A stretch of DNA of 51,350 nucleotides from a virus. Taxonomy: Duplodnaviria; Heunggongvirae; Uroviricota; Caudoviricetes. Both the position numbers and the translations under genes were made by a program. Location: IMG/VR virus record IMGVR_UViG_2690315831_000003; one strand, given 5' to 3'. Shown here one piece after another: positions 4,891-28,429 of this stretch. Every line of letters begins with the position of its first letter. The stretch's first letter is position 1. The notes beneath the pieces are model-generated. The model did no database searches. It saw only the letters and a list, made by a program, of their open reading frames with translations, and had not been told where the DNA came from.

Positions 4891-5406
4891 GTGATCGCTG
4901 AATTAACGGCAGCAATGACGGCTATTCGTGAAACCGCTCAGATTACAAAACTAATGAACGAGGCAAAAACTCAAGCTGAAGTAAATGCGGCTATTGGTGA
5001 ACTGAACTCAAAGCTTGCATCTATTCAGCACGAATGCGTGTCTCTCGTTGAGCTGGTGAGCACTTATCAAGAAATAAATGCTTCTCTCAAAGCTAAAATT
5101 GCAGAATTTGAAAACTTTGAGGCTCAGACGGAAGGTTATATCCTTAACCAACTTGAGTCGGGAACTTTTGTGTACTCGAAGGAGGTAACCGTGAACGGCG
5201 GCAGCATAATCATGCATCTTTGTCCAAAATGTTTTGGACAAAAGATAGTATCGATACTTCAACCATTCCCGGTTAGAGAACATGAGTTTTTTCATAAAAG
5301 CAGGTGCCTCTACTGTGAAAATCAGTTTCTTATGAATAAAAATCCGGATTATGTATCGCCTCCATCTATTGAGGAGTTGGCCAGAAAACTGAACGGCAAT
5401 CTGTAG
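4891..5406 (+). CDS. Hypothetical coiled-coil protein with C-terminal CxxC...CxxC zinc ribbon; low-GC cargo gene oriented against the leftward early operon
   Basis: Long ORF in AT-rich DNA; GTG at 4891 with AAGAG upstream (track start 4849 is TTG; ATG alternatives 4915, 4954); motifs CPKCFGQK and CLYCENQF. Confidence 0.45.
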   Translation: MIAELTAAMTAIRETAQITKLMNEAKTQAEVNAAIGELNSKLASIQHECVSLVELVSTYQEINASLKAKIAEFENFEAQTEGYILNQLESGTFVYSKEVTVNGGSIIMHLCPKCFGQKIVSILQPFPVREHEFFHKSRCLYCENQFLMNKNPDYVSPPSIEELARKLNGNL

Positions 5407-5519
5407 ATTGTTACTGTTATGGATATCCAGATTGTTAAAGAGCATGCCGGATGCTTGCTTGTGTCCGGCGCGTGTGCACCAGTTCTCCCCGTGGAGGATT
5501 CCTTAACTACCAGACTTCA

Positions 5520-5672
5520 TTAGTCAGAGTTTCTTGCTAACCAGCGACGCGCGCCAGCTTCAGTTTTAAACGTTTTGCTTCTGGTATACGTCATCGCGGT
5601 AAACGTGCCGTCCTGGTTGGGGAATACTCCGCATACCAGAGATTCGTTGTTGCCAAGATTGAGCGTATCCAT
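5520..5672 (-). CDS. Small YdfA-like early protein (50 aa)
   Basis: Minus-strand ORF MDTLNLGNNESLVCGVFPNQDGTFTAMTYTRSKTFKTEAGARRWLARNSD with GAGG RBS 6 nt upstream; below the 60-aa cutoff of the ORF track. Confidence 0.45.
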   Translation of the reverse strand: MDTLNLGNNESLVCGVFPNQDGTFTAMTYTRSKTFKTEAGARRWLARNSD

Positions 5673-5829
5673 GTTGACCTCATTTGCCCTTAACGCCGGG
5701 TCGCGGAACTAAAAACCTGCTGCGCTGTTATACAAAGTGTTCCCGCCGTCATGTTCATACGCCTCGGGCTGGCTACTTAACCCCTGACCACTGCCTGGTA
5801 ACTCGAAGTATTGCCTGGCGTTCTGTGGG

Positions 5830-5967: not shown

Positions 5968-6387
5968 TCAGGAGGCTTTTTGTTTTTTCTTTCGCGCTAA
6001 TTCTTCATAAATTGCGTTGTACTTCTGTTTTTTCTCCTCAAGAGTTTTTAAAAGTTCATCAGTTTCACTGTCAGGGAGTTCATCAAGAAGTTCAATGATG
6101 ATTTTTTGCTTCGGACTTAACTCCTGATAGAAACGCAGGCTTCCGCTTTCTTCAGTGTCCTCCCCCAGAAGGTAAGTTGGTGTTGTTCCGATAAGTGCTG
6201 CCAATTCTTTCAGTTTCTCTCGACGGGGAATTGCCTCTCCATTAAACCATTTACTAACCGCTTTGGGTGTTAGCTTCATTCGACGGGCAATTTCTGCCTG
6301 CCTTCCGTGTTGTTCAAAGCCAGCATTTTCACAGGCTAGCGCAAGCCTGCTGGCGAACTCTTTACGCGCTTCATCTTCATGAACCAT
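5968..6387 (-). CDS. Prophage repressor, DicA-like (HTH only, no S24 peptidase domain)
   Basis: 139 aa; N-terminal HTH segment; C-terminal acidic LP-rich helix resembles recalled DicA C-terminus; divergent from cro-like gene. Confidence 0.8.
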   Translation of the reverse strand: MVHEDEARKEFASRLALACENAGFEQHGRQAEIARRMKLTPKAVSKWFNGEAIPRREKLKELAALIGTTPTYLLGEDTEESGSLRFYQELSPKQKIIIELLDELPDSETDELLKTLEEKKQKYNAIYEELARKKKQKAS

Positions 6388-6466
6388 AAGTTCAATGATA
6401 TTTGCTATTGAATGTACTGTCAGTTCTGTTATATTGTGTACTCAAAGTTCACATTGTGAGGGTGAT
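6388..6466. promoter_or_regulatory. Divergent pRM/pR promoter-operator region
   Basis: Plus strand -35 TTGAAT (6408-6413), 16-17 nt spacer, -10 TATATT (6430-6435) before cro-like gene; minus strand CTGACA-17 nt-TATCAT giving a near-leaderless repressor mRNA; inverted repeats TTCAAT...ATTGAA and TCACATTGTGA. Confidence 0.5.
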
Positions 6467-6733
6467 ATGAGCCATACAACACTTGCAGATGTAATCAAAG
6501 CAGTTCGCGTTTCTGTTGTAGCCGATGTTTGCGGTGTCAGCCAAAGAGCAATCTACAAATGGATGAATAATGGAAAATTACCGCGCACAGAATATACAGG
6601 CGAAACAAATTACGCTGAAAAAATTGCTCTGGCATCAAACGGATTATTTTCTGCTGATGCGGTTTTGACTATTGGCAGGATTAAGCCTACAGCGAATGAA
6701 TCACTGGCGGTGAACAATGAAAATCACCCCTGA
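6467..6733 (+). CDS. Cro/DicC-like HTH regulator
   Basis: ATG at 6467 preceded by GAGGGTGA; HTH segment VCGVSQRAIYKWMNNGKLP; divergent from repressor. Confidence 0.7.
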   Translation: MSHTTLADVIKAVRVSVVADVCGVSQRAIYKWMNNGKLPRTEYTGETNYAEKIALASNGLFSADAVLTIGRIKPTANESLAVNNENHP

Positions 6734-16871: not shown

Positions 16872-16947
16872 GGCCCTTTAGCTCAGTGGTGAGAGCGAGC
16901 GACTCATAATCGCCAGGTCGCTGGTTCAAATCCAGCAAGGGCCACCA
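16872..16947 (+). tRNA. tRNA with CAU anticodon (Ile2/ileX-like or Met)
   Basis: Cloverleaf folded by hand: acceptor GGCCCTT/AAGGGCC, D-arm GCTC-AGTGGTGA-GAGC, anticodon loop CTCATAA, T-loop TTCAAAT, 3' CCA. Confidence 0.85.
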
Positions 16948-16956
16948 TATCACATA

Positions 16957-17033
16957 CCGCCATTAGCTCATCGGGATAGAGCGCCAGCCTTCGAAGCTGG
17001 CTGCGCGGGGTTCGAGTCCTCGATGGCGGTCCA
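16957..17033 (+). tRNA. tRNA-Arg (UCG anticodon)
   Basis: Acceptor CCGCCAT/ATGGCGG, anticodon stem CCAGC/GCTGG with loop CTTCGAA, T-loop TTCGAGT, 3' CCA; unusual C1-G72. Confidence 0.75.
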
Positions 17034-20282: not shown

Positions 20283-20381
20283 TGCAGGAAAAACGCTGTG
20301 TTGTGAAATGTTAAATTCCTCACAGTTCAGATGGTTGATGCTTGCCTGTCTTACGGGGAGTTGTTAAAAAAGTTCTGCATG

Positions 20382-20544
20382 GTGAATCCCCCTGAGCGGA
20401 GGGGCATATCAGCGCAGGTGTTTCTACTCTATCCTTTCTGTGCGGGTTCAGGTGCTGATACTGAACTCACCGGGAGGCACCCGGCACCATGCAGTATACA
20501 GAGATTAGGCATACATCCAGGCTCCTCATCGCAGGAGCCTTTTT
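20382..20544 (+). ncRNA. Putative sRNA, repeat unit D
   Basis: Conserved 5' box and internal hairpin; different terminator GGCTCCTcatcgcAGGAGCC + T5. Confidence 0.35.
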
Positions 20545-20550
20545 ACATGT

Positions 20551-20628
20551 AAAAAAAAACCGCTCCTGGGAAGAGCGGTTGGCAAGGAAGCAAGGAATAA
20601 ATAACAAAACGTGAAGTAATTTATTCAG
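20551..20628 (-). ncRNA. Putative minus-strand sRNA, copy 2
   Basis: Same promoter TTGCGC-17-TATTAT and conserved body UUACUUCACGUUUU..UUAUUCCUUGC; terminator AACCGCTC...GAGCGGTT + T9. Confidence 0.4.
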
Positions 20629-20777: not shown

Positions 20778-22742
20778 ATGGCATTTAAACACTACGATGT
20801 GGTCAGGGCGGCATCGCCGTCAGACCTTGCTGAACGACTGACACAAAAACTGAAGGAGGGCTGGCAGCCATTTGGCAGTCCGGTGGCCATCACGCCTTAT
20901 ACCCTGATGCAGGCCATTGCGGCGGAAGGTGATGTCACCACACCAGTGGCGGTGACCGGTAATGAGGGTAAGGCGGTGGCTGTCAGTGCCACCAGCGACC
21001 CGGAGTATTACTTTGTTGTGGTTCTGGCAGGGCAGTCAAATGGCATGTCGTATGGTGAAGGTCTTCCGCTGCCGGAGACATATGACCGTCCGGACCCGCG
21101 CATTAAGCAGCTGGCGCGCCGCAGTACGGTGACACCGGGCGGTGCAGCATGCAAATATAACGACATCATTCCGGCGGACCATTGTCTGCATGATGTGCAG
21201 GACATGAGCCGCCTTAACCATCCGAAAGCGGACCTGTCAAAGGGGCAGTACGGTACCGTGGGGCAGGGGCTGCATATCGCCAAAAAACTGCTGCCGTTTA
21301 TACCGGCGAATGCGGGTATTCTGCTGGTTCCGTGCTGTCGTGGTGGTTCAGCGTTCACCACCGGAGCTGATGGCACATACAGTGACGCTGGCGGTGCCTC
21401 GGAGAATTCAGCGCGCTGGGGTGTGGACAAGCCGCTGTATAAGGACCTTATCGGTCGAACAAAAGCAGCACTGAAGAAGAACCCGAAAAATGTGCTGTTT
21501 ACCGTGGTGTGGATGCAGGGGGAATTTGATTTTGACGGCACGCCCGGAAATCACGCAGCACAGTTTGGTGCGCTGGTTGATAAATTCCGTGCAGACCTGA
21601 CGGATATGGCAGGTCAGTGCGTTGGTGGCTCTGCTGGCGGTGTTCCCTGGATATGCGGGGACACGACGTATTTCTGGAAGCAGAAGAACGAATCCACGTA
21701 CCAGACGGTGTACGGCAGCTATAAAAACAAAACGGAAAAGAATATCCATTTCGTACCGTTCATGACGGATGAGAACGGGGTGAATGTGCCGACGAACAAA
21801 CCGGAAGAAGACCCGGACATTCCGGGTATCGGGTATTACGGTTCGAAATGGCGTGACAGCTCAGCCACCTGGACGTCACAGGACAGGGCGAGCCATTTCA
21901 GCACCTGGGCACGCCGGGGGATTATTTCCGACCGTCTGGCAACGGCGATTCTGGTGCACGCCGGGAGAACCGCTGAATTCATTACCGGAAAACAGCCTGA
22001 TATGGTGAAGCCCACCGTACCTTCCGGTGAAGGTCCGGAGAGAGAGGCGGAAGCCCCGGTCAGTAACCGAACCCTGATGAGTCTGCTGGCATCCGGCGAA
22101 GACCTGGCATCACAGGGCTGGCGCTATTATCACAAACCGGCGGGCGGAGACAGTGTTAACAAAAACATTGCTGAAGCGGTGGTCAGTGATGCGGGGGCTA
22201 CGGGAGGTAAGGCCCTGCAACTGAACAAACCGGAAAACCACATCTGGTTTCTGGAGCATGATGCAGCCGGACAGGGGGCGGAGTTACTGAAGAAGGGCGG
22301 ACGTGTGAGCGTACGGTTTAAGTTGCCGGGTTCACTGGTGCCGAATCAGTTTGCCCTGGGCATTTACTGGCAGTTGTCGTCCCTGCCGGAGGGGGTGACG
22401 CTGTCAGGAGAAGGTAACGATATGCTGATGTCTTTCTTCCTGCAGACGGATACGACGAACCTGAACGCGATGCATCACAGGAAGCCGAATGCGAAGCTGG
22501 ATACATTCGGGGTCTTTGATAACGGATGGCACACGCTGGCTTTTGAGTTTGCCGGAAACAACAGCATTCAGGTGACACCAGTACTGGATGAGAAACGGGG
22601 AGCGGCGTTCACACTGGTGAAGTCACCGGCATCGGGGGCGGCGGACAAACTGCAACTGACCGATATATCAAAATCGGCGACGTATACGCTGCTGATTGAC
22701 AGCATTGCGGTGGAAGTGAACAGCACAGACACTGCGGCATGA
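20778..22742 (+). CDS. nanS: Prophage 9-O-acetyl-sialate esterase NanS-p-like (SGNH hydrolase)
   Basis: 654 aa; GQSN motif in VVLAGQSNGMSYGEG; same location relative to the stx site as the NanS-p gene of Stx phages. Confidence 0.7.
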   Translation: MAFKHYDVVRAASPSDLAERLTQKLKEGWQPFGSPVAITPYTLMQAIAAEGDVTTPVAVTGNEGKAVAVSATSDPEYYFVVVLAGQSNGMSYGEGLPLPETYDRPDPRIKQLARRSTVTPGGAACKYNDIIPADHCLHDVQDMSRLNHPKADLSKGQYGTVGQGLHIAKKLLPFIPANAGILLVPCCRGGSAFTTGADGTYSDAGGASENSARWGVDKPLYKDLIGRTKAALKKNPKNVLFTVVWMQGEFDFDGTPGNHAAQFGALVDKFRADLTDMAGQCVGGSAGGVPWICGDTTYFWKQKNESTYQTVYGSYKNKTEKNIHFVPFMTDENGVNVPTNKPEEDPDIPGIGYYGSKWRDSSATWTSQDRASHFSTWARRGIISDRLATAILVHAGRTAEFITGKQPDMVKPTVPSGEGPEREAEAPVSNRTLMSLLASGEDLASQGWRYYHKPAGGDSVNKNIAEAVVSDAGATGGKALQLNKPENHIWFLEHDAAGQGAELLKKGGRVSVRFKLPGSLVPNQFALGIYWQLSSLPEGVTLSGEGNDMLMSFFLQTDTTNLNAMHHRKPNAKLDTFGVFDNGWHTLAFEFAGNNSIQVTPVLDEKRGAAFTLVKSPASGAADKLQLTDISKSATYTLLIDSIAVEVNSTDTAA

Positions 22743-22876
22743 TAAAAAAAGCCGCCAGTTACCGGAATGGACTGGCGGTGGTAATACCCATGGAGAAATA
22801 TAAAGGAACGATACTTTCGTGCTCTGTTTTTTTAAATGAAAACAGTTCTTATTGTCAACAATAACGGTAAGAAATT

Positions 22877-23056
22877 ATGACTTTTATTCATCAGGTGATG
22901 CTGTACTTCTGTACGGCAGTCTGTGTGCTGTATCTCCTTTCGGGTGGATACCGGGCCATGCGTGACTTCTGGCGCAGACAGATTGACAAAAGGGCCGCTG
23001 AGAAAATCAGCGCCAGTCAGTCAGCCGGAAGCAAACCCGAAGAGCCGCTCATTTAG
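22877..23056 (+). CDS. Possible small membrane protein (59 aa)
   Basis: ATG 22877; hydrophobic N-terminus; below the ORF-track cutoff. Confidence 0.3.
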   Translation: MTFIHQVMLYFCTAVCVLYLLSGGYRAMRDFWRRQIDKRAAEKISASQSAGSKPEEPLI

Positions 23057-23096
23057 CGGCAACTTTCTTAATCACACCTTTCGACGAGAAAATCCC

Positions 23097-23342
23097 ATGT
23101 CAGAAATTACATCCCTGGTCACTGCTGAAGCAGTGAAGGACGTCCTGCGCTCTGAAGAAGTCCTGAGCGCACTGAAACAGAAACTTCGCCATAACCTGGA
23201 AGCGCGTCTTGATGCAGAAGTGGATGCCATTCTGGATGAACTGCTGGGCGCACCGGCAGCTCCGGAGCCGGAAGGCATCGCGGGAGAGGGGAGTGCTTCA
23301 GATAGCGGTGACCCCACACCTGACAGCGACATGATGATGTAA
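23097..23342 (+). CDS. Small acidic hypothetical protein
   Basis: ATG 23097 (MSEITSLV...); Asp/Glu-rich C-terminus. Confidence 0.4.
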
Positions 23343-23419
23343 GCATGCGTCAGGGACCATCGGTGTGTGCCGGTGGTCTTTTTTATTGTTGTGAGCTTCC
23401 GGATTGCGGGAGACGGGGT

Positions 23420-23635
23420 ATGTACCAGATGGAAAAAATCACAACAGGTGTGTCATACACCACGTCAGCGGTGGGAACGGGCTACTGGTTCCTGCAGTTG
23501 CTGGACAGGGTTTCCCCGTCTCAGTGGGCGGCAATAGGCGTGCTGGGGAGTCTGCTGTTTGGGCTGCTGACATATCTGACGAACCTGTATTTCAAGATTA
23601 AAGAAGACCGTCGTAAGGCGGCACGGGGAGAGTAG
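23420..23635 (+). CDS. S: Class II holin (phage 21 S-like pinholin), dual-start motif
   Basis: 71 aa [23 protein letters not shown]... closely matches recalled S21; two Met codons three residues apart. Confidence 0.85.
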
Positions 23636-23638
23636 GTG

Positions 23639-23968
23639 ATGAACCATGAAGAAATGAATCAGCGCTTCAGTCGTCTGGAAAATGAAATTGCTGAACTGAA
23701 TAAAAAACTGTCGGCGCTGATGCCTTCTGAAGATGCAAACAAACGCCGCGATGAGCAGTTTGCGGCGTTTTACGATGATTGCATCAAAATTGCTCGCAGG
23801 ATCTTTGCGAATATTTTGCAGGAAAAGTTTTTACCGACCGCATTGTCAGAAAAGTACTCCATTACGGTTAGAAGTGCCGGAGAGGAAGGCAATAAACGTT
23901 ATTTTATTGCGTCTGCACCGGATAAAGACCAGGAATGGGGGGGGGTAATCGGCCATCTTTTATTGTGA
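23639..23968 (+). CDS. Hypothetical protein, N-terminal part of a gene split at a G9 tract
   Basis: ORF runs into the G9 homopolymer (23937-23945) and stops 23 nt later; the next ORF starts inside the tract in the +1 frame. Confidence 0.45.
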   Translation: MNHEEMNQRFSRLENEIAELNKKLSALMPSEDANKRRDEQFAAFYDDCIKIARRIFANILQEKFLPTALSEKYSITVRSAGEEGNKRYFIASAPDKDQEWGGVIGHLLL

Positions 23969-24309
23969 CAAGCGATGACTGGAATATCACGATCAGTGAA
24001 GATGGAAAAGTAACACCAGCATCGCACCAGCACAGTGAGGCGCTCATTGAATTTGCCATTGATTACATGAAGAACAATAAAAAGCAGGGGCTGATGCAGC
24101 GCATTGGTCGCTGCATGGGATATCTGCAGCTGGCGGCAGAGATTGAAGCACTTGCCTGTGGTGCTGACAAGGATGTAGTTGTGCGGGAGGCTCTTCTTCG
24201 TGAGTTTGACAACCCGCCCTTTAAAAAAGTGCCGGCTTACTGGTTTCATCCTGGACTGACTTATCTGAAAGGGCGGTTTGGGGAGAGGTTATCTGAACTT
24301 AAGCGATAG
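23935..24309 (+). CDS. Hypothetical protein, C-terminal part of the same split gene
   Basis: Frame becomes continuous with 23639..23968 if the G-run has 10 rather than 9 G. Confidence 0.45.
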   Translation: MGGGNRPSFIVTSDDWNITISEDGKVTPASHQHSEALIEFAIDYMKNNKKQGLMQRIGRCMGYLQLAAEIEALACGADKDVVVREALLREFDNPPFKKVPAYWFHPGLTYLKGRFGERLSELKR

Positions 24310-24609
24310 TTTATTGAAGAGCCGTTTTTTTTGCAGACAGGCAAAGTTTTTATCCCATGAACAACCCGGGTGACTGAGTTCGTCATTAAACCATTTGTTA
24401 ATGTTGTGCTTCAGATGCTGAAGCATCAATGGTGTTAATGTGGTGATAATGATATCCAGAGTTTCTGTTGAAAGCATGCCGTAAGGCTCTGAGAGAATGG
24501 CCTGAGTGGCCTCGCTGTTATCCGGGATAAGCGCTTTTAATTCTGATTTAACATTTTCGTTCATTATCTGCAAAAACTCTTTGCGTAAATTGTTGTCATT
24601 ATTATTCAT
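24289..24609 (-). CDS. Hypothetical protein, convergent with the split gene
   Basis: 106-aa ORF in roughly 35% GC DNA, where long ORFs are unlikely by chance. Confidence 0.4.
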   Translation of the reverse strand: MNNNDNNLRKEFLQIMNENVKSELKALIPDNSEATQAILSEPYGMLSTETLDIIITTLTPLMLQHLKHNINKWFNDELSHPGCSWDKNFACLQKKRLFNKLSLKFR

Positions 24610-24734
24610 TTATAAAATCTCATTTGTTGTTACCGGGTGTGTCCTGGTGCCTGTTGATTATATTCATCGTGAGTACCGGATTATATATCTGACATATCCA
24701 GGAATAAGAGAGCTATAAATCCTGATAAATATCC

Positions 24735-25268
24735 ATGAACGCAAAAATCAAATACGGCCTGTCAGCTGCCGTTCTGGCGCTGATTGCCGCAGGGGCTTCT
24801 GCGCCTGAAATCCTCGACCAGTTTCTTGACGAAAAAGAAGGTAACCACACCACGGCATACCGTGATGGTGCGGGTATCTGGACCATCTGCCGTGGAGCCA
24901 CCCGGGTGGATGGTAAGCCTGTTATTCCTGGCATGAAGCTGTCGAAGGAAAAATGCGACCGGGTTAACGCTATCGAACGGGATAAGGCGCTGGCATGGGT
25001 GGAGAAAAACATCAAAGTGCCACTGACTGAACCCCAGAAAGCGGGTATTGCGTCATTCTGTCCTTACAACATTGGCCCCGGTAAGTGTTTCCCGTCGACG
25101 TTTTATAAACGAATTAATGCAGGCGATCGCAGGGGAGCGTGTGAAGCGATTCGCTGGTGGATTAAGGACGGTGGCAGAGACTGCCGTATCCGCTCAAATA
25201 ACTGTTATGGTCAGGTATCCCGTCGTGACCAGGAGAGCGCGCTGGCGTGCTGGGGTATCGACAGATAA
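24735..25268 (+). CDS. R: SAR endolysin (lysozyme-like, phage 21 R-like)
   Basis: 177 aa; N-terminal hydrophobic SAR segment YGLSAAVLALIAAGASA; lysozyme-like core; pairs with pinholin. Confidence 0.8.
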   Translation: MNAKIKYGLSAAVLALIAAGASAPEILDQFLDEKEGNHTTAYRDGAGIWTICRGATRVDGKPVIPGMKLSKEKCDRVNAIERDKALAWVEKNIKVPLTEPQKAGIASFCPYNIGPGKCFPSTFYKRINAGDRRGACEAIRWWIKDGGRDCRIRSNNCYGQVSRRDQESALACWGIDR

Positions 25269-25424
25269 GCAGAATATTTTGCTGAAAAATGACGTTGGCC
25301 AACGCGGACGGATAACACGAAATCCTGCGAACTGGCAAAACCTAAGTGAATAAAAGTAAAAACCCCGTTTGTTGGCAGCAAGCGGGGTTTTGTGTTTCTG
25401 ACCTTGGATAAGGCAAGGGAGAAC

Positions 25425-25607
25425 ATGGAAAAGTATAAACGAATTCTGTTGAGGTTGACTATGAAAAACGGCCTTGAACTGAAAGCGCCAGTAAGTGATG
25501 ACATCAGCAGAGCGCTGGCTTTTGCTATTAAGTGGGTGGCGGTCGGTATCGCTGTGTCTCCGATACTGTATGGGCTGGCAAAACTGGTCATTGCGTTGAA
25601 ATCGTGA
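25425..25607 (+). CDS. Small membrane protein between R and Rz
   Basis: 60 aa; AAGGGAGAAC before ATG; one C-terminal TM helix. Confidence 0.45.
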
Positions 25608-27985: not shown

Positions 27986-28351
27986 ATGGCTGAGCTTCGT
28001 ACACTCCAGAGCAGAATCAAAACACTGAATACCCGACGGGTGAATATTCTGAAGGGTGAACAGCGTCGTGTCAGTGGCAGTGCACGTGTTTCCCTCAAGC
28101 GTCATATCTGGCTCAGGGATGCCGGGCAGTGCTGTCTCTGTGGTCGTGTGGTTGACCTCTGTGACAGTGAACTCGATCACCGAATTGCACTTCAGTTCGG
28201 TGGTGGTAATGAGGAGACGAATCTCTGGACGCTCTGTACCGAATGCCATCGACAAAAGTCTGCTCGTGAAGCGGCGGGTGGTATGCCGGACCCGACGCTG
28301 CCGGAGGTGTCCGGAGGTAGTGACAGAGCGGACGACATCATCGGACTGTAA
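27986..28351 (+). CDS. HNH endonuclease (terminase-associated)
   Basis: Cys-rich HNH core (CCLCG...DHRIALQFGG...CTECH); immediately upstream of terminase genes. Confidence 0.8.
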   Translation: MAELRTLQSRIKTLNTRRVNILKGEQRRVSGSARVSLKRHIWLRDAGQCCLCGRVVDLCDSELDHRIALQFGGGNEETNLWTLCTECHRQKSAREAAGGMPDPTLPEVSGGSDRADDIIGL

Positions 28352-28429
28352 CCCGACCCGGGGGGGTATCATCCGGCGTAAAAAACGATCGCTTTGGACA
28401 CCGCGCCCCCTCTCACGCAGAGAAAAAAT

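Follow-up and report, generated by a model that had tools for sequence, protein, structure and literature searches.

Repeat-driven contingency loci of the kind typical of Haemophilus, Neisseria and Campylobacter are usually said to be absent from Escherichia coli, and for phages such loci have, to our knowledge, been reported only in a 2025 preprint and only from lytic phages. Lambdoid 'morons' such as lambda bor are transcribed against the late operon. The preprint describes homopolymer contingency loci in the lytic coliphages T2 and T4 as bet-hedging against defence, the phage examples being A-runs (PMC12633550). In the slot between the P21-type holin and the lysozyme, the Qin prophage of E. 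coli K-12 carries ydfR (essQ-ydfR-rrrQ), the product of which has been reported to interact with RNase E's catalytic domain and possibly to bind RNA (PMC13232886).

The locus studied here lies in the same slot as ydfR, within a stretch of viral DNA of 51,350 nucleotides (the window). Like the simple sequence repeat (SSR) contingency loci of the above genera and of T2/T4, it has a homopolymer inside an open reading frame that sets the frame, and many tract lengths among near-identical genomes, including both ON and OFF states that are reversible in principle; this likeness is one between genomes. The tract also differs from the described loci in being a recent derivative of one allele lineage with no known phenotype, and in lying mid-gene at a domain linker, where the OFF state truncates the protein but does not abolish it. 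Unlike the lytic coliphage cases (PMC12633550), the window represents a temperate lambdoid prophage in a mismatch-repair-proficient E. coli host, and its repeat is a G-run.

The window covers the late region of an E. coli prophage that is lambdoid and Stx-phage-like but stx-less (Table 1). RefSeq names the homologues of the two genes bounding the slot 'class II holin family protein' and 'lysozyme'. The distance between the holin end and the lysozyme start, predicted at about 1.1 kb, is 1,099 bp. The whole 1.34-kb segment is present in 27 complete E. coli genomes. Over the wider region the nearest complete genome shows 97–98% identity with only about 70% of 24 kb covered, and the window is therefore not a copy of any record in the complete-genome set. 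An Rfam scan of positions 22700–25500 gave nothing above threshold, and the repeat search detected a single repeat, inverted and 13 nt long, close to the 3' end of the forward gene, without a T-run behind it. No paper was found on the forward gene, on inserts in the holin–endolysin slot or on varying poly-G tracts in prophages of E. coli.

Table 1. Features of the holin–endolysin slot and its surroundings, with positions in the window.
Feature	Position	Strand	Description
tRNA genes	16872-17033
NanS-p-type SASA esterase	20778-22742		upstream of slot
DUF1378	22877-23056		upstream of slot
DUF826	23097-23342		upstream of slot
P21-type class II holin (S), 71 aa	23420..23635	+	Pfam PF04971 Phage_holin_2_1, E=7e-33; 5' slot boundary
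ORF1, N-terminal fragment, 109 aa	23639..23968	+	coiled coil and variable middle region
ORF2, conserved C-terminal domain, 124 aa	23935..24309	+	-1 frame relative to ORF1
G9 homopolymer	23937..23945	+	encodes Gly linker just before conserved C-terminal domain
Convergent gene, 106 aa	24289..24609	-	antisense to late operon; PHROG 1853 (unknown function), E=2e-44
A8 run (T8 on + strand)	24325..24332	-	inside convergent gene, codes LQKKR
Lysozyme-type endolysin (R), 177 aa	24735..25268	+	Pfam PF00959 Phage_lysozyme, E=8e-25; 3' slot boundary

The sequence read and the list of open reading frames agree with the original prediction that ORF1 runs into the G9 tract and then stops: the TGA (23966–23968) comes eight codons past the tract in the wrong frame (...EWGGVIGHLLL before the stop). 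Translation from the ATG at 23639 gives the 109-aa product, and an alternative GTG start at 23636 would give 110 aa. The Shine-Dalgarno sequence of ORF1 (GGAGAG) is placed 6 nt upstream and overlaps the holin stop, and because of its position and of this coupling to the holin stop the forward gene would be expressed from the late promoter. ORF2 is likewise, as had been predicted, out of frame with ORF1, the frame being -1. Its ATG (23935) directly adjoins the G tract, and since its sole Shine-Dalgarno-like motif, AGGA, touches the ATG, independent initiation of ORF2 is probably poor.

ORF1 aligns to residues 1–102 of an intact 222-aa protein, and comparison with homologues shows ORF1 and ORF2 to be the two halves of one gene that is intact in most relatives. 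The comparison retrieved single uninterrupted reading frames in S19-141 (G7, 222 aa; WP_001378945.1) and in 2014C-3338 (G13, 224 aa). That a G10 tract would fuse the two ORFs into a protein of about 223 aa was correct, the exact 223-aa protein being present on 23 public contigs, but the commonest intact form is the G7 form (WP_001378945.1) and not G10. A single amino acid change (K78R) is all that separates the window copy from the intact allele besides the frameshift, and there is no further decay. RefSeq already lists the gene, either as a hypothetical protein or as a frameshifted pseudogene; OkiPb01697 (G9) and strain 10 (G12) are both marked as frameshifted, and the G9 allele is there annotated as a pseudogene. 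The dN/dS of the forward gene is 0.25–0.35, and both this gene and the convergent gene are under purifying selection.

By its similarities the forward gene corresponds to the long 'YdfR family' prophage proteins less their DUF1327 part. This family is built of modules: DUF1327 (YdfR), which is N-terminal and optional, a coiled coil (LENEIAELNKKLS), a middle region that varies, and a C-terminal domain of about 110 aa that is conserved and has the invariant motifs GR..LQ.A, PPFK and W..PG..YL; a short variable linker, in which the G tract is located, precedes the conserved domain. Homologue searches with the forward protein gave 176 matches, confined to prophages of E. coli and Shigella, many of them fused to DUF1327. 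A profile search among 1.84 billion representatives retrieved only 43 proteins, all of the same architecture and none with an informative domain. PHROG 1085 (e.g. P0100, 296 aa) matches the forward protein over profile positions 117–296 (E=1e-98). PHROGs returned solely families of unknown function for the forward and the convergent protein, neither protein had a match below E=0.01 in Pfam, NCBIfam or PADLOC, and PDB sequence searches found nothing. The C-terminal domain models well (AlphaFold2 model of ORF2 with pLDDT 88 and pTM 0.78, comprising a three-strand beta meander and four helices), but the model matched no known fold and no functional family was found.

The C-terminal two-thirds of the long YdfR-family proteins (287–333 aa) are 56–64% identical to the window protein over about 95% of its length. 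In contrast, a Pfam scan of the fused 222-aa protein found no DUF1327 (PF07041), and BLASTP gave no alignment between the window protein and YdfR of K-12. The latter consists of the DUF1327 module alone and shares 81% identity with the N-terminal end of the long form, and the reported RNase E interaction and RNA binding therefore concern a module that is absent from the window protein (PMC13232886). The DUF1327 module and the coiled-coil/C-terminal modules occur fused (287–333 aa), alone, or adjacent in reverse order (L006), and the position between holin and lysozyme was also seen in three related loci (L005, L006 and L022). From the domain-fusion argument we only infer that the two kinds of modules may act together and that the window-type module might have a part in an RNase E or RNA function. 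A 95-aa antisense ORF in L006 showed no detectable relation to the convergent gene of the window.

The low-GC gene of 106 aa that had been predicted on the opposite strand is present, and it overlaps the 3' end of ORF2 by 21 bp, with a GC content of 37–40% against about 52% in the flanks. With homologues of 47–78% identity its dN/dS is 0.14–0.29, which marks it clearly as a coding gene. The family includes 11 clusters in a collection of 5.8 billion, all from E. coli and found only in prophages, and all the homologues examined are antisense and placed between a P21-type holin and a lysozyme. The A8 run inside the gene is also present in the 59%-identical homologue of L014. Expression of the convergent gene together with the late lysis operon, as originally suggested, does not agree with its orientation: being antisense, it cannot be expressed by the late promoter. 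It would instead be an independent, AT-rich, moron-like antisense gene that habitually occupies the holin–endolysin slot. Like the lambdoid morons it is small, AT-rich, antisense to the late genes and adjoins the lysis genes, but in contrast to them no consensus sigma-70 promoter or intrinsic terminator was found in its flanks, and its product differs from that of lambda bor in that it lacks both a signal peptide and a lipobox and resembles neither bor nor any other characterised protein.

The G9 tract is the longest G/C homopolymer in the window, followed by two G7 runs. An internal control with a G7 run elsewhere in the window (28360) gave matches so diverged that length differences could not be assigned to the run. 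It is the length polymorphism in related genomes, and not the occurrence of the run as such, that sets the tract beyond chance. At the tract position the sister alleles have either TGGGAGTGTAAT (W-E-C-N) or TGGGGGGATAAT (W-G-D-N). As WECN is the commonest state across the family, the uninterrupted run would be a recent derivative, two substitutions away from it. Related loci carry G7, G8, G9, G12, G13 and G11 followed by AAT, and in IMG/VR G7 was found four times and G8 once.

For a wider sample, the product predicted for each tract length on the common haplotype was looked up as an exact match in a collection of 15 billion proteins (Table 2). Every length from G5 to G16 was found, and the counts peak locally at 7, 10 and 13, which are in-frame lengths, although the contig counts are not counts of independent isolates and clonal sampling could produce the in-frame peaks. 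Partial proteins at the ends of contigs can also raise the counts of G8, G11 and G14, several such entries being flagged 'partial', and some of the states differing by ±1 may be artefacts, long G runs being error-prone in both long- and short-read assemblies. About 40% of the contigs with an uninterrupted tract were out of frame. Among the lengths other than G7, in-frame contigs made up 46 of 106 against an expectation of one third (binomial p=0.02, with contigs that are not independent), which hints that the intact gene is selected, but this excess fits a functional switch and incidental instability equally. The C-terminal ORFs of the OFF states were also detected: MGGG... on 17 contigs, with 27 further contigs on a second haplotype, then MGGGG... 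on 13, MGGGGG... on four and a GTG-start form of 114 aa on 40. Contigs carrying the G10 and G13 proteins were sought with the convergent protein as a proxy. Some contigs end right at the tract (as seen in the partial proteins P0184, P0185 and P0193), which is compatible with heterogeneity but also with poor coverage of poly-G. A metagenome scan for the tract gave 49 matches, all of them chance 17-mers and none a family member.

Table 2. Public contigs carrying the exact product predicted for each tract length.
Tract	Contigs	Frame
G4	0	in frame
G5	2	out of frame
G6	1	out of frame
G7	106	in frame
G8	23	out of frame
G9	12 (10, and 2 with the R78 of the window)	out of frame
G10	23	in frame
G11	9	out of frame
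G12	9	out of frame
G13	22	in frame
G14	5	out of frame
G15	2	out of frame
G16	1	in frame
G17-G19	0

Comparison of the flanking sequences over 2.4 kb indicates that changes of the tract outpace nucleotide substitutions and recur on several backgrounds. One haplotype includes G7 (L034), G12 (L003 and L032) and G13 (L004) at a distance of only 0–1 SNP, and another includes the window (G9), the complete genome OkiPb01697 (L002, G9) and an IMG/VR record (L012, G8) at a distance of 3–8 SNPs, five of them separating the window from OkiPb01697. On a third background G7 was found together with a G11 that arose by an extra T-to-G change and is in frame (223 aa), and with an interrupted GGAGGGG (L023). 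The interrupted sister allele TGGGGGGATAAT (GGGGGGA, G6A) is, by contrast, nearly invariant: it was intact on at least 992 contigs, a +1 variant was present on two, and product look-up found no other length variants of it. Less than 0.3% of the G6A alleles are thus variants against the roughly 40–50% of tracts other than G7 among those of G7 and longer. This jump in instability exceeds the naive prediction for one added G, and as such it counts against the explanation favoured below.

We consider it probable that the tract is hypermutable and arose by chance in the linker, and that the window carries a genuine inherited out-of-frame allele that slippage could reverse. In one sub-lineage the linker codons TGG GAG TGT (W-E-C) would have changed to TGG GGG GGT and thereby created a G7 run, the length of which would then change by slipped-strand mispairing in replication much faster than point mutations accumulate, the outcome being the population series from G5 to G16. 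The lengths 7, 10, 13 and 16 would give a full-length protein with two to five linker glycines, and other lengths would truncate the protein exactly at the domain boundary; the G9 of the window (+2) would leave the 109-aa N-terminal fragment and strand the C-terminal domain in the -1 frame. Since the tract lies in a variable linker, an in-frame expansion would only lengthen the glycine linker. The slippage hotspot that had been predicted from the tract thus has a counterpart among E. coli assemblies, where in-frame states occur as well as out-of-frame ones. The instability would most simply be an incidental by-product and not a selected switch. A recent pseudogene, another of the options originally named, agrees with the annotation of the G9 allele in RefSeq.

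A different cause has been suggested for the G9 of the window itself, namely a homopolymer miscount in its assembly, the true tract being G10 or G7 and the gene intact. Assemblies err most often by homopolymer indels, the in-frame G10, which exists, is one base longer than G9, and the K78R copy has not decayed beyond its frameshift. However, OkiPb01697 is an independent complete genome with the same G9, the third record of the same haplotype has G8, the 109-aa product is present on public contigs with R78 as well as with K78, the matching ORF2 is found on 17 contigs, and the second haplotype has a G9-type ORF2 on 27. The G10 and G13 peaks, the independent assemblies agreeing at G9 and at G12 and the invariance of G6A cannot be explained by error alone. 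A miscount is accordingly quite improbable. Extremely improbable is programmed recoding, in which a full-length and a short form would arise by -1 ribosomal frameshifting on G_GGG_GGG or by slippage of transcription on G9, as in dnaX or in IS elements. The -1 frame of ORF2 would suit it, the tract is formally an X_XXY_YYZ heptamer, and long homopolymers can provoke slippage of the polymerase or the ribosome, but most relatives are single-frame (the G7, WECN and WGDN alleles), so that the two-frame layout is not conserved, and the RNA structure downstream is unremarkable (fold of 23930–24040 without pseudoknots: MFE -28.3 kcal/mol, z=-1.77, with 12 of 200 shuffles folding as well). We also know of no all-G heptamer that acts as an efficient shift site. 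It is very improbable, too, that the two genes, forward and convergent, were inserted together as one functional cassette of the toxin/immunity or the defence/anti-defence type; a two-gene cassette had been the original suggestion. Two diverged pairings do exist, that of the window and that of L022 and L024, where a 118-aa homologue of the convergent gene is paired with the G6A allele, and in the window lineage the 3' ends overlap. Nevertheless, each gene is also found without the other: the forward gene occurs without the convergent one in L005, the convergent one is alone in the slot in L014–L017, and in L018–L021 it persists beside a decayed forward-gene remnant of 65 aa. It is intact in all the frameshifted alleles with no sign of co-inactivation, the two genes lie on opposite strands under different transcriptional control, and PADLOC, Pfam and NCBIfam gave no match to a defence, toxin or antitoxin model. 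As far as these loci tell, the two genes often lie side by side in a slot that is permissive, without being bound to each other as an obligate cassette.

The tract may be a selected contingency locus (true phase variation or bet-hedging), in which stochastic production of full-length, N-terminal-only and possibly split forms benefits the phage or the lysogen; one possible benefit would be evasion of a host defence by which the protein is sensed, its advantage in other hosts being kept. We regard this as a real but rather unlikely possibility. The continuous series with its maxima at in-frame lengths, the large out-of-frame share, the recurrence of length changes on at least three haplotypes and the recent report of homopolymer contingency loci in lytic coliphages (PMC12633550) all speak for it. 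Against it, the tract is present in one recent sub-lineage only, the rest of the family being WECN or interrupted and stable, and interrupting substitutions occur (GGAGGGG in L023; GGGGGGA), as selection against instability would yield. The tract moreover lies mid-gene at a linker and away from the 5' end, no phenotype or function is on record for the forward gene, and OFF alleles can simply drift because a late gene is silent in the lysogen. A more elaborate version, in which a temperate coliphage has a multi-state switch for host-dependent hedging, is decidedly unlikely: the in-frame lengths would then give the full-length protein with a variable glycine linker, G9, G12 and G15 the coiled-coil fragment together with a C-terminal domain re-initiated from the abutting ATG, and G8, G11 and G14 the N-terminal fragment only, while the protein would be a partner module of the RNase E-binding YdfR, helping for example in the control of host RNA decay or being sensed by defence. 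The suggestion that the locus is phase-variable is consequently borne out in so far as an ON/OFF tract-length polymorphism was found, but adaptive switching was neither shown nor excluded.

Under the reading preferred here, that of a hypermutable tract in a linker, what is new about the locus is the population-level evidence that a temperate E. coli prophage has a poly-G slippage hotspot, with lengths of G5 to G16, and beside it an allele that is interrupted and stable. Calls of 'frameshifted pseudogene' at this locus should not be read as loss of the gene. The newly formed unstable G7 run and its stable sister, interrupted by one base, together make a system for the homopolymer hypermutability threshold in a mismatch-repair-proficient host. 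The conserved domain, structurally unmatched and repeatedly fused or adjacent to DUF1327/YdfR in the holin–endolysin slot, is a lead to the function of both modules. The locus belongs to a widespread family of lambdoid prophages associated with bovine and STEC strains, and it permits testing of bet-hedging in accessory proteins of phage late genes. If a selected switch were true, it would bring SSR phase variation to E. coli and to a lambdoid prophage, in neither of which the mechanism is established.

The poly-G tract in the linker of the split forward gene has been reshaped by point mutations in related loci. STEC1587 carries the interrupted sequence GGAGGGG, coding for W-R-G-N, and in a second locus (L033) a T-to-G change following G10 has produced an 11-G run with the reading frame kept. 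Strain 10 (NZ_CP146507.1) includes two prophages with the cassette, one with a frameshifted G12 tract (L003) and the other with an intact G7 version (L025), and different tract states thus coexist in one cell line.

Many draft-genome contigs in the public assemblies break off precisely where the tract lies. The proteins predicted from them are partial (P0184, P0185, P0193, P0209) and either end in ...APDK, ...DQE or ...QEWG or start at NRPSF. The breaks could result from poor coverage of the poly-G run, from repeat-induced assembly breaks between prophage copies, or from within-sample length heterogeneity of the tract.

The G9 tract and an A9 run are jointly the longest homopolymers of the window. 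The A9 run falls where a 73-aa ORF ends, and the SASA esterase gene lies downstream of it. Directly downstream of the esterase gene there is a weak Rfam match to the EHEC sRNA Esr41; its 25 bits (E=0.075) fall short of the gathering score, which is 102. A G7 run is located 9 bp past the stop codon of the HNH endonuclease gene, and the matches to a 98-bp query span 97 to 100 bp across E. coli genomes. Because these genomes are 4–6% diverged, the differences in length may come from the run or from elsewhere in the match.

The convergent 106-aa gene includes a T8 run, which reads as A8 in the coding direction and codes for LQKKR. The A8 run is present also in the 59%-identical homologue from L014, and it is a potential second slippage site of the slot between the holin and lysozyme genes. 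L014 belongs to a group of prophages (L014–L017) with a lone homologue of the convergent gene. These four also have a 263-aa Enterotoxin_a/Scabin-like ADP-ribosyltransferase gene together with a 110-aa partner ORF immediately upstream of the holin, the place occupied by stx in Stx phages.

Coordinates of the features in the window and in related loci
Feature	Sequence	Position	Strand
73-aa ORF	window	20331-20552	
A9 run	window	20551-20559	
Esr41-like match	window	22744-22817	minus
T8 run	window	24325-24332	
HNH endonuclease gene	window	27986-28351	
G7 run	window	28360-28366	
Slot ORFs	L006	3409-3928	
ADP-ribosyltransferase site	L014	about 4913-5704	
C-terminal domain remnant	L018	3786-3983	
Interrupted tract	L023 (STEC1587)	about 1536-1556	
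11-G run	L033	about 2131	reverse
essQ–ydfR–rrrQ	L086 (K-12 Qin)	6055-6586	

The holin–lysozyme slot is a mosaic hotspot in which gene decay is frequent. In L006 a DUF1327 ORF of its own (75 aa) comes after the forward gene, together with an antisense ORF of 95 aa that is unrelated, and in L018 all that the slot retains of the conserved C-terminal domain is a decayed remnant of 65 aa. In the classic Stx phages (933W, Sakai) S is adjacent to R. The Qin prophage of E. coli K-12 shares the slot architecture of the window, with ydfR lying between essQ (holin) and rrrQ (lysozyme), and the P21-type holin–endolysin gap is therefore a place where accessory genes, those of the YdfR family among them, recurrently sit.
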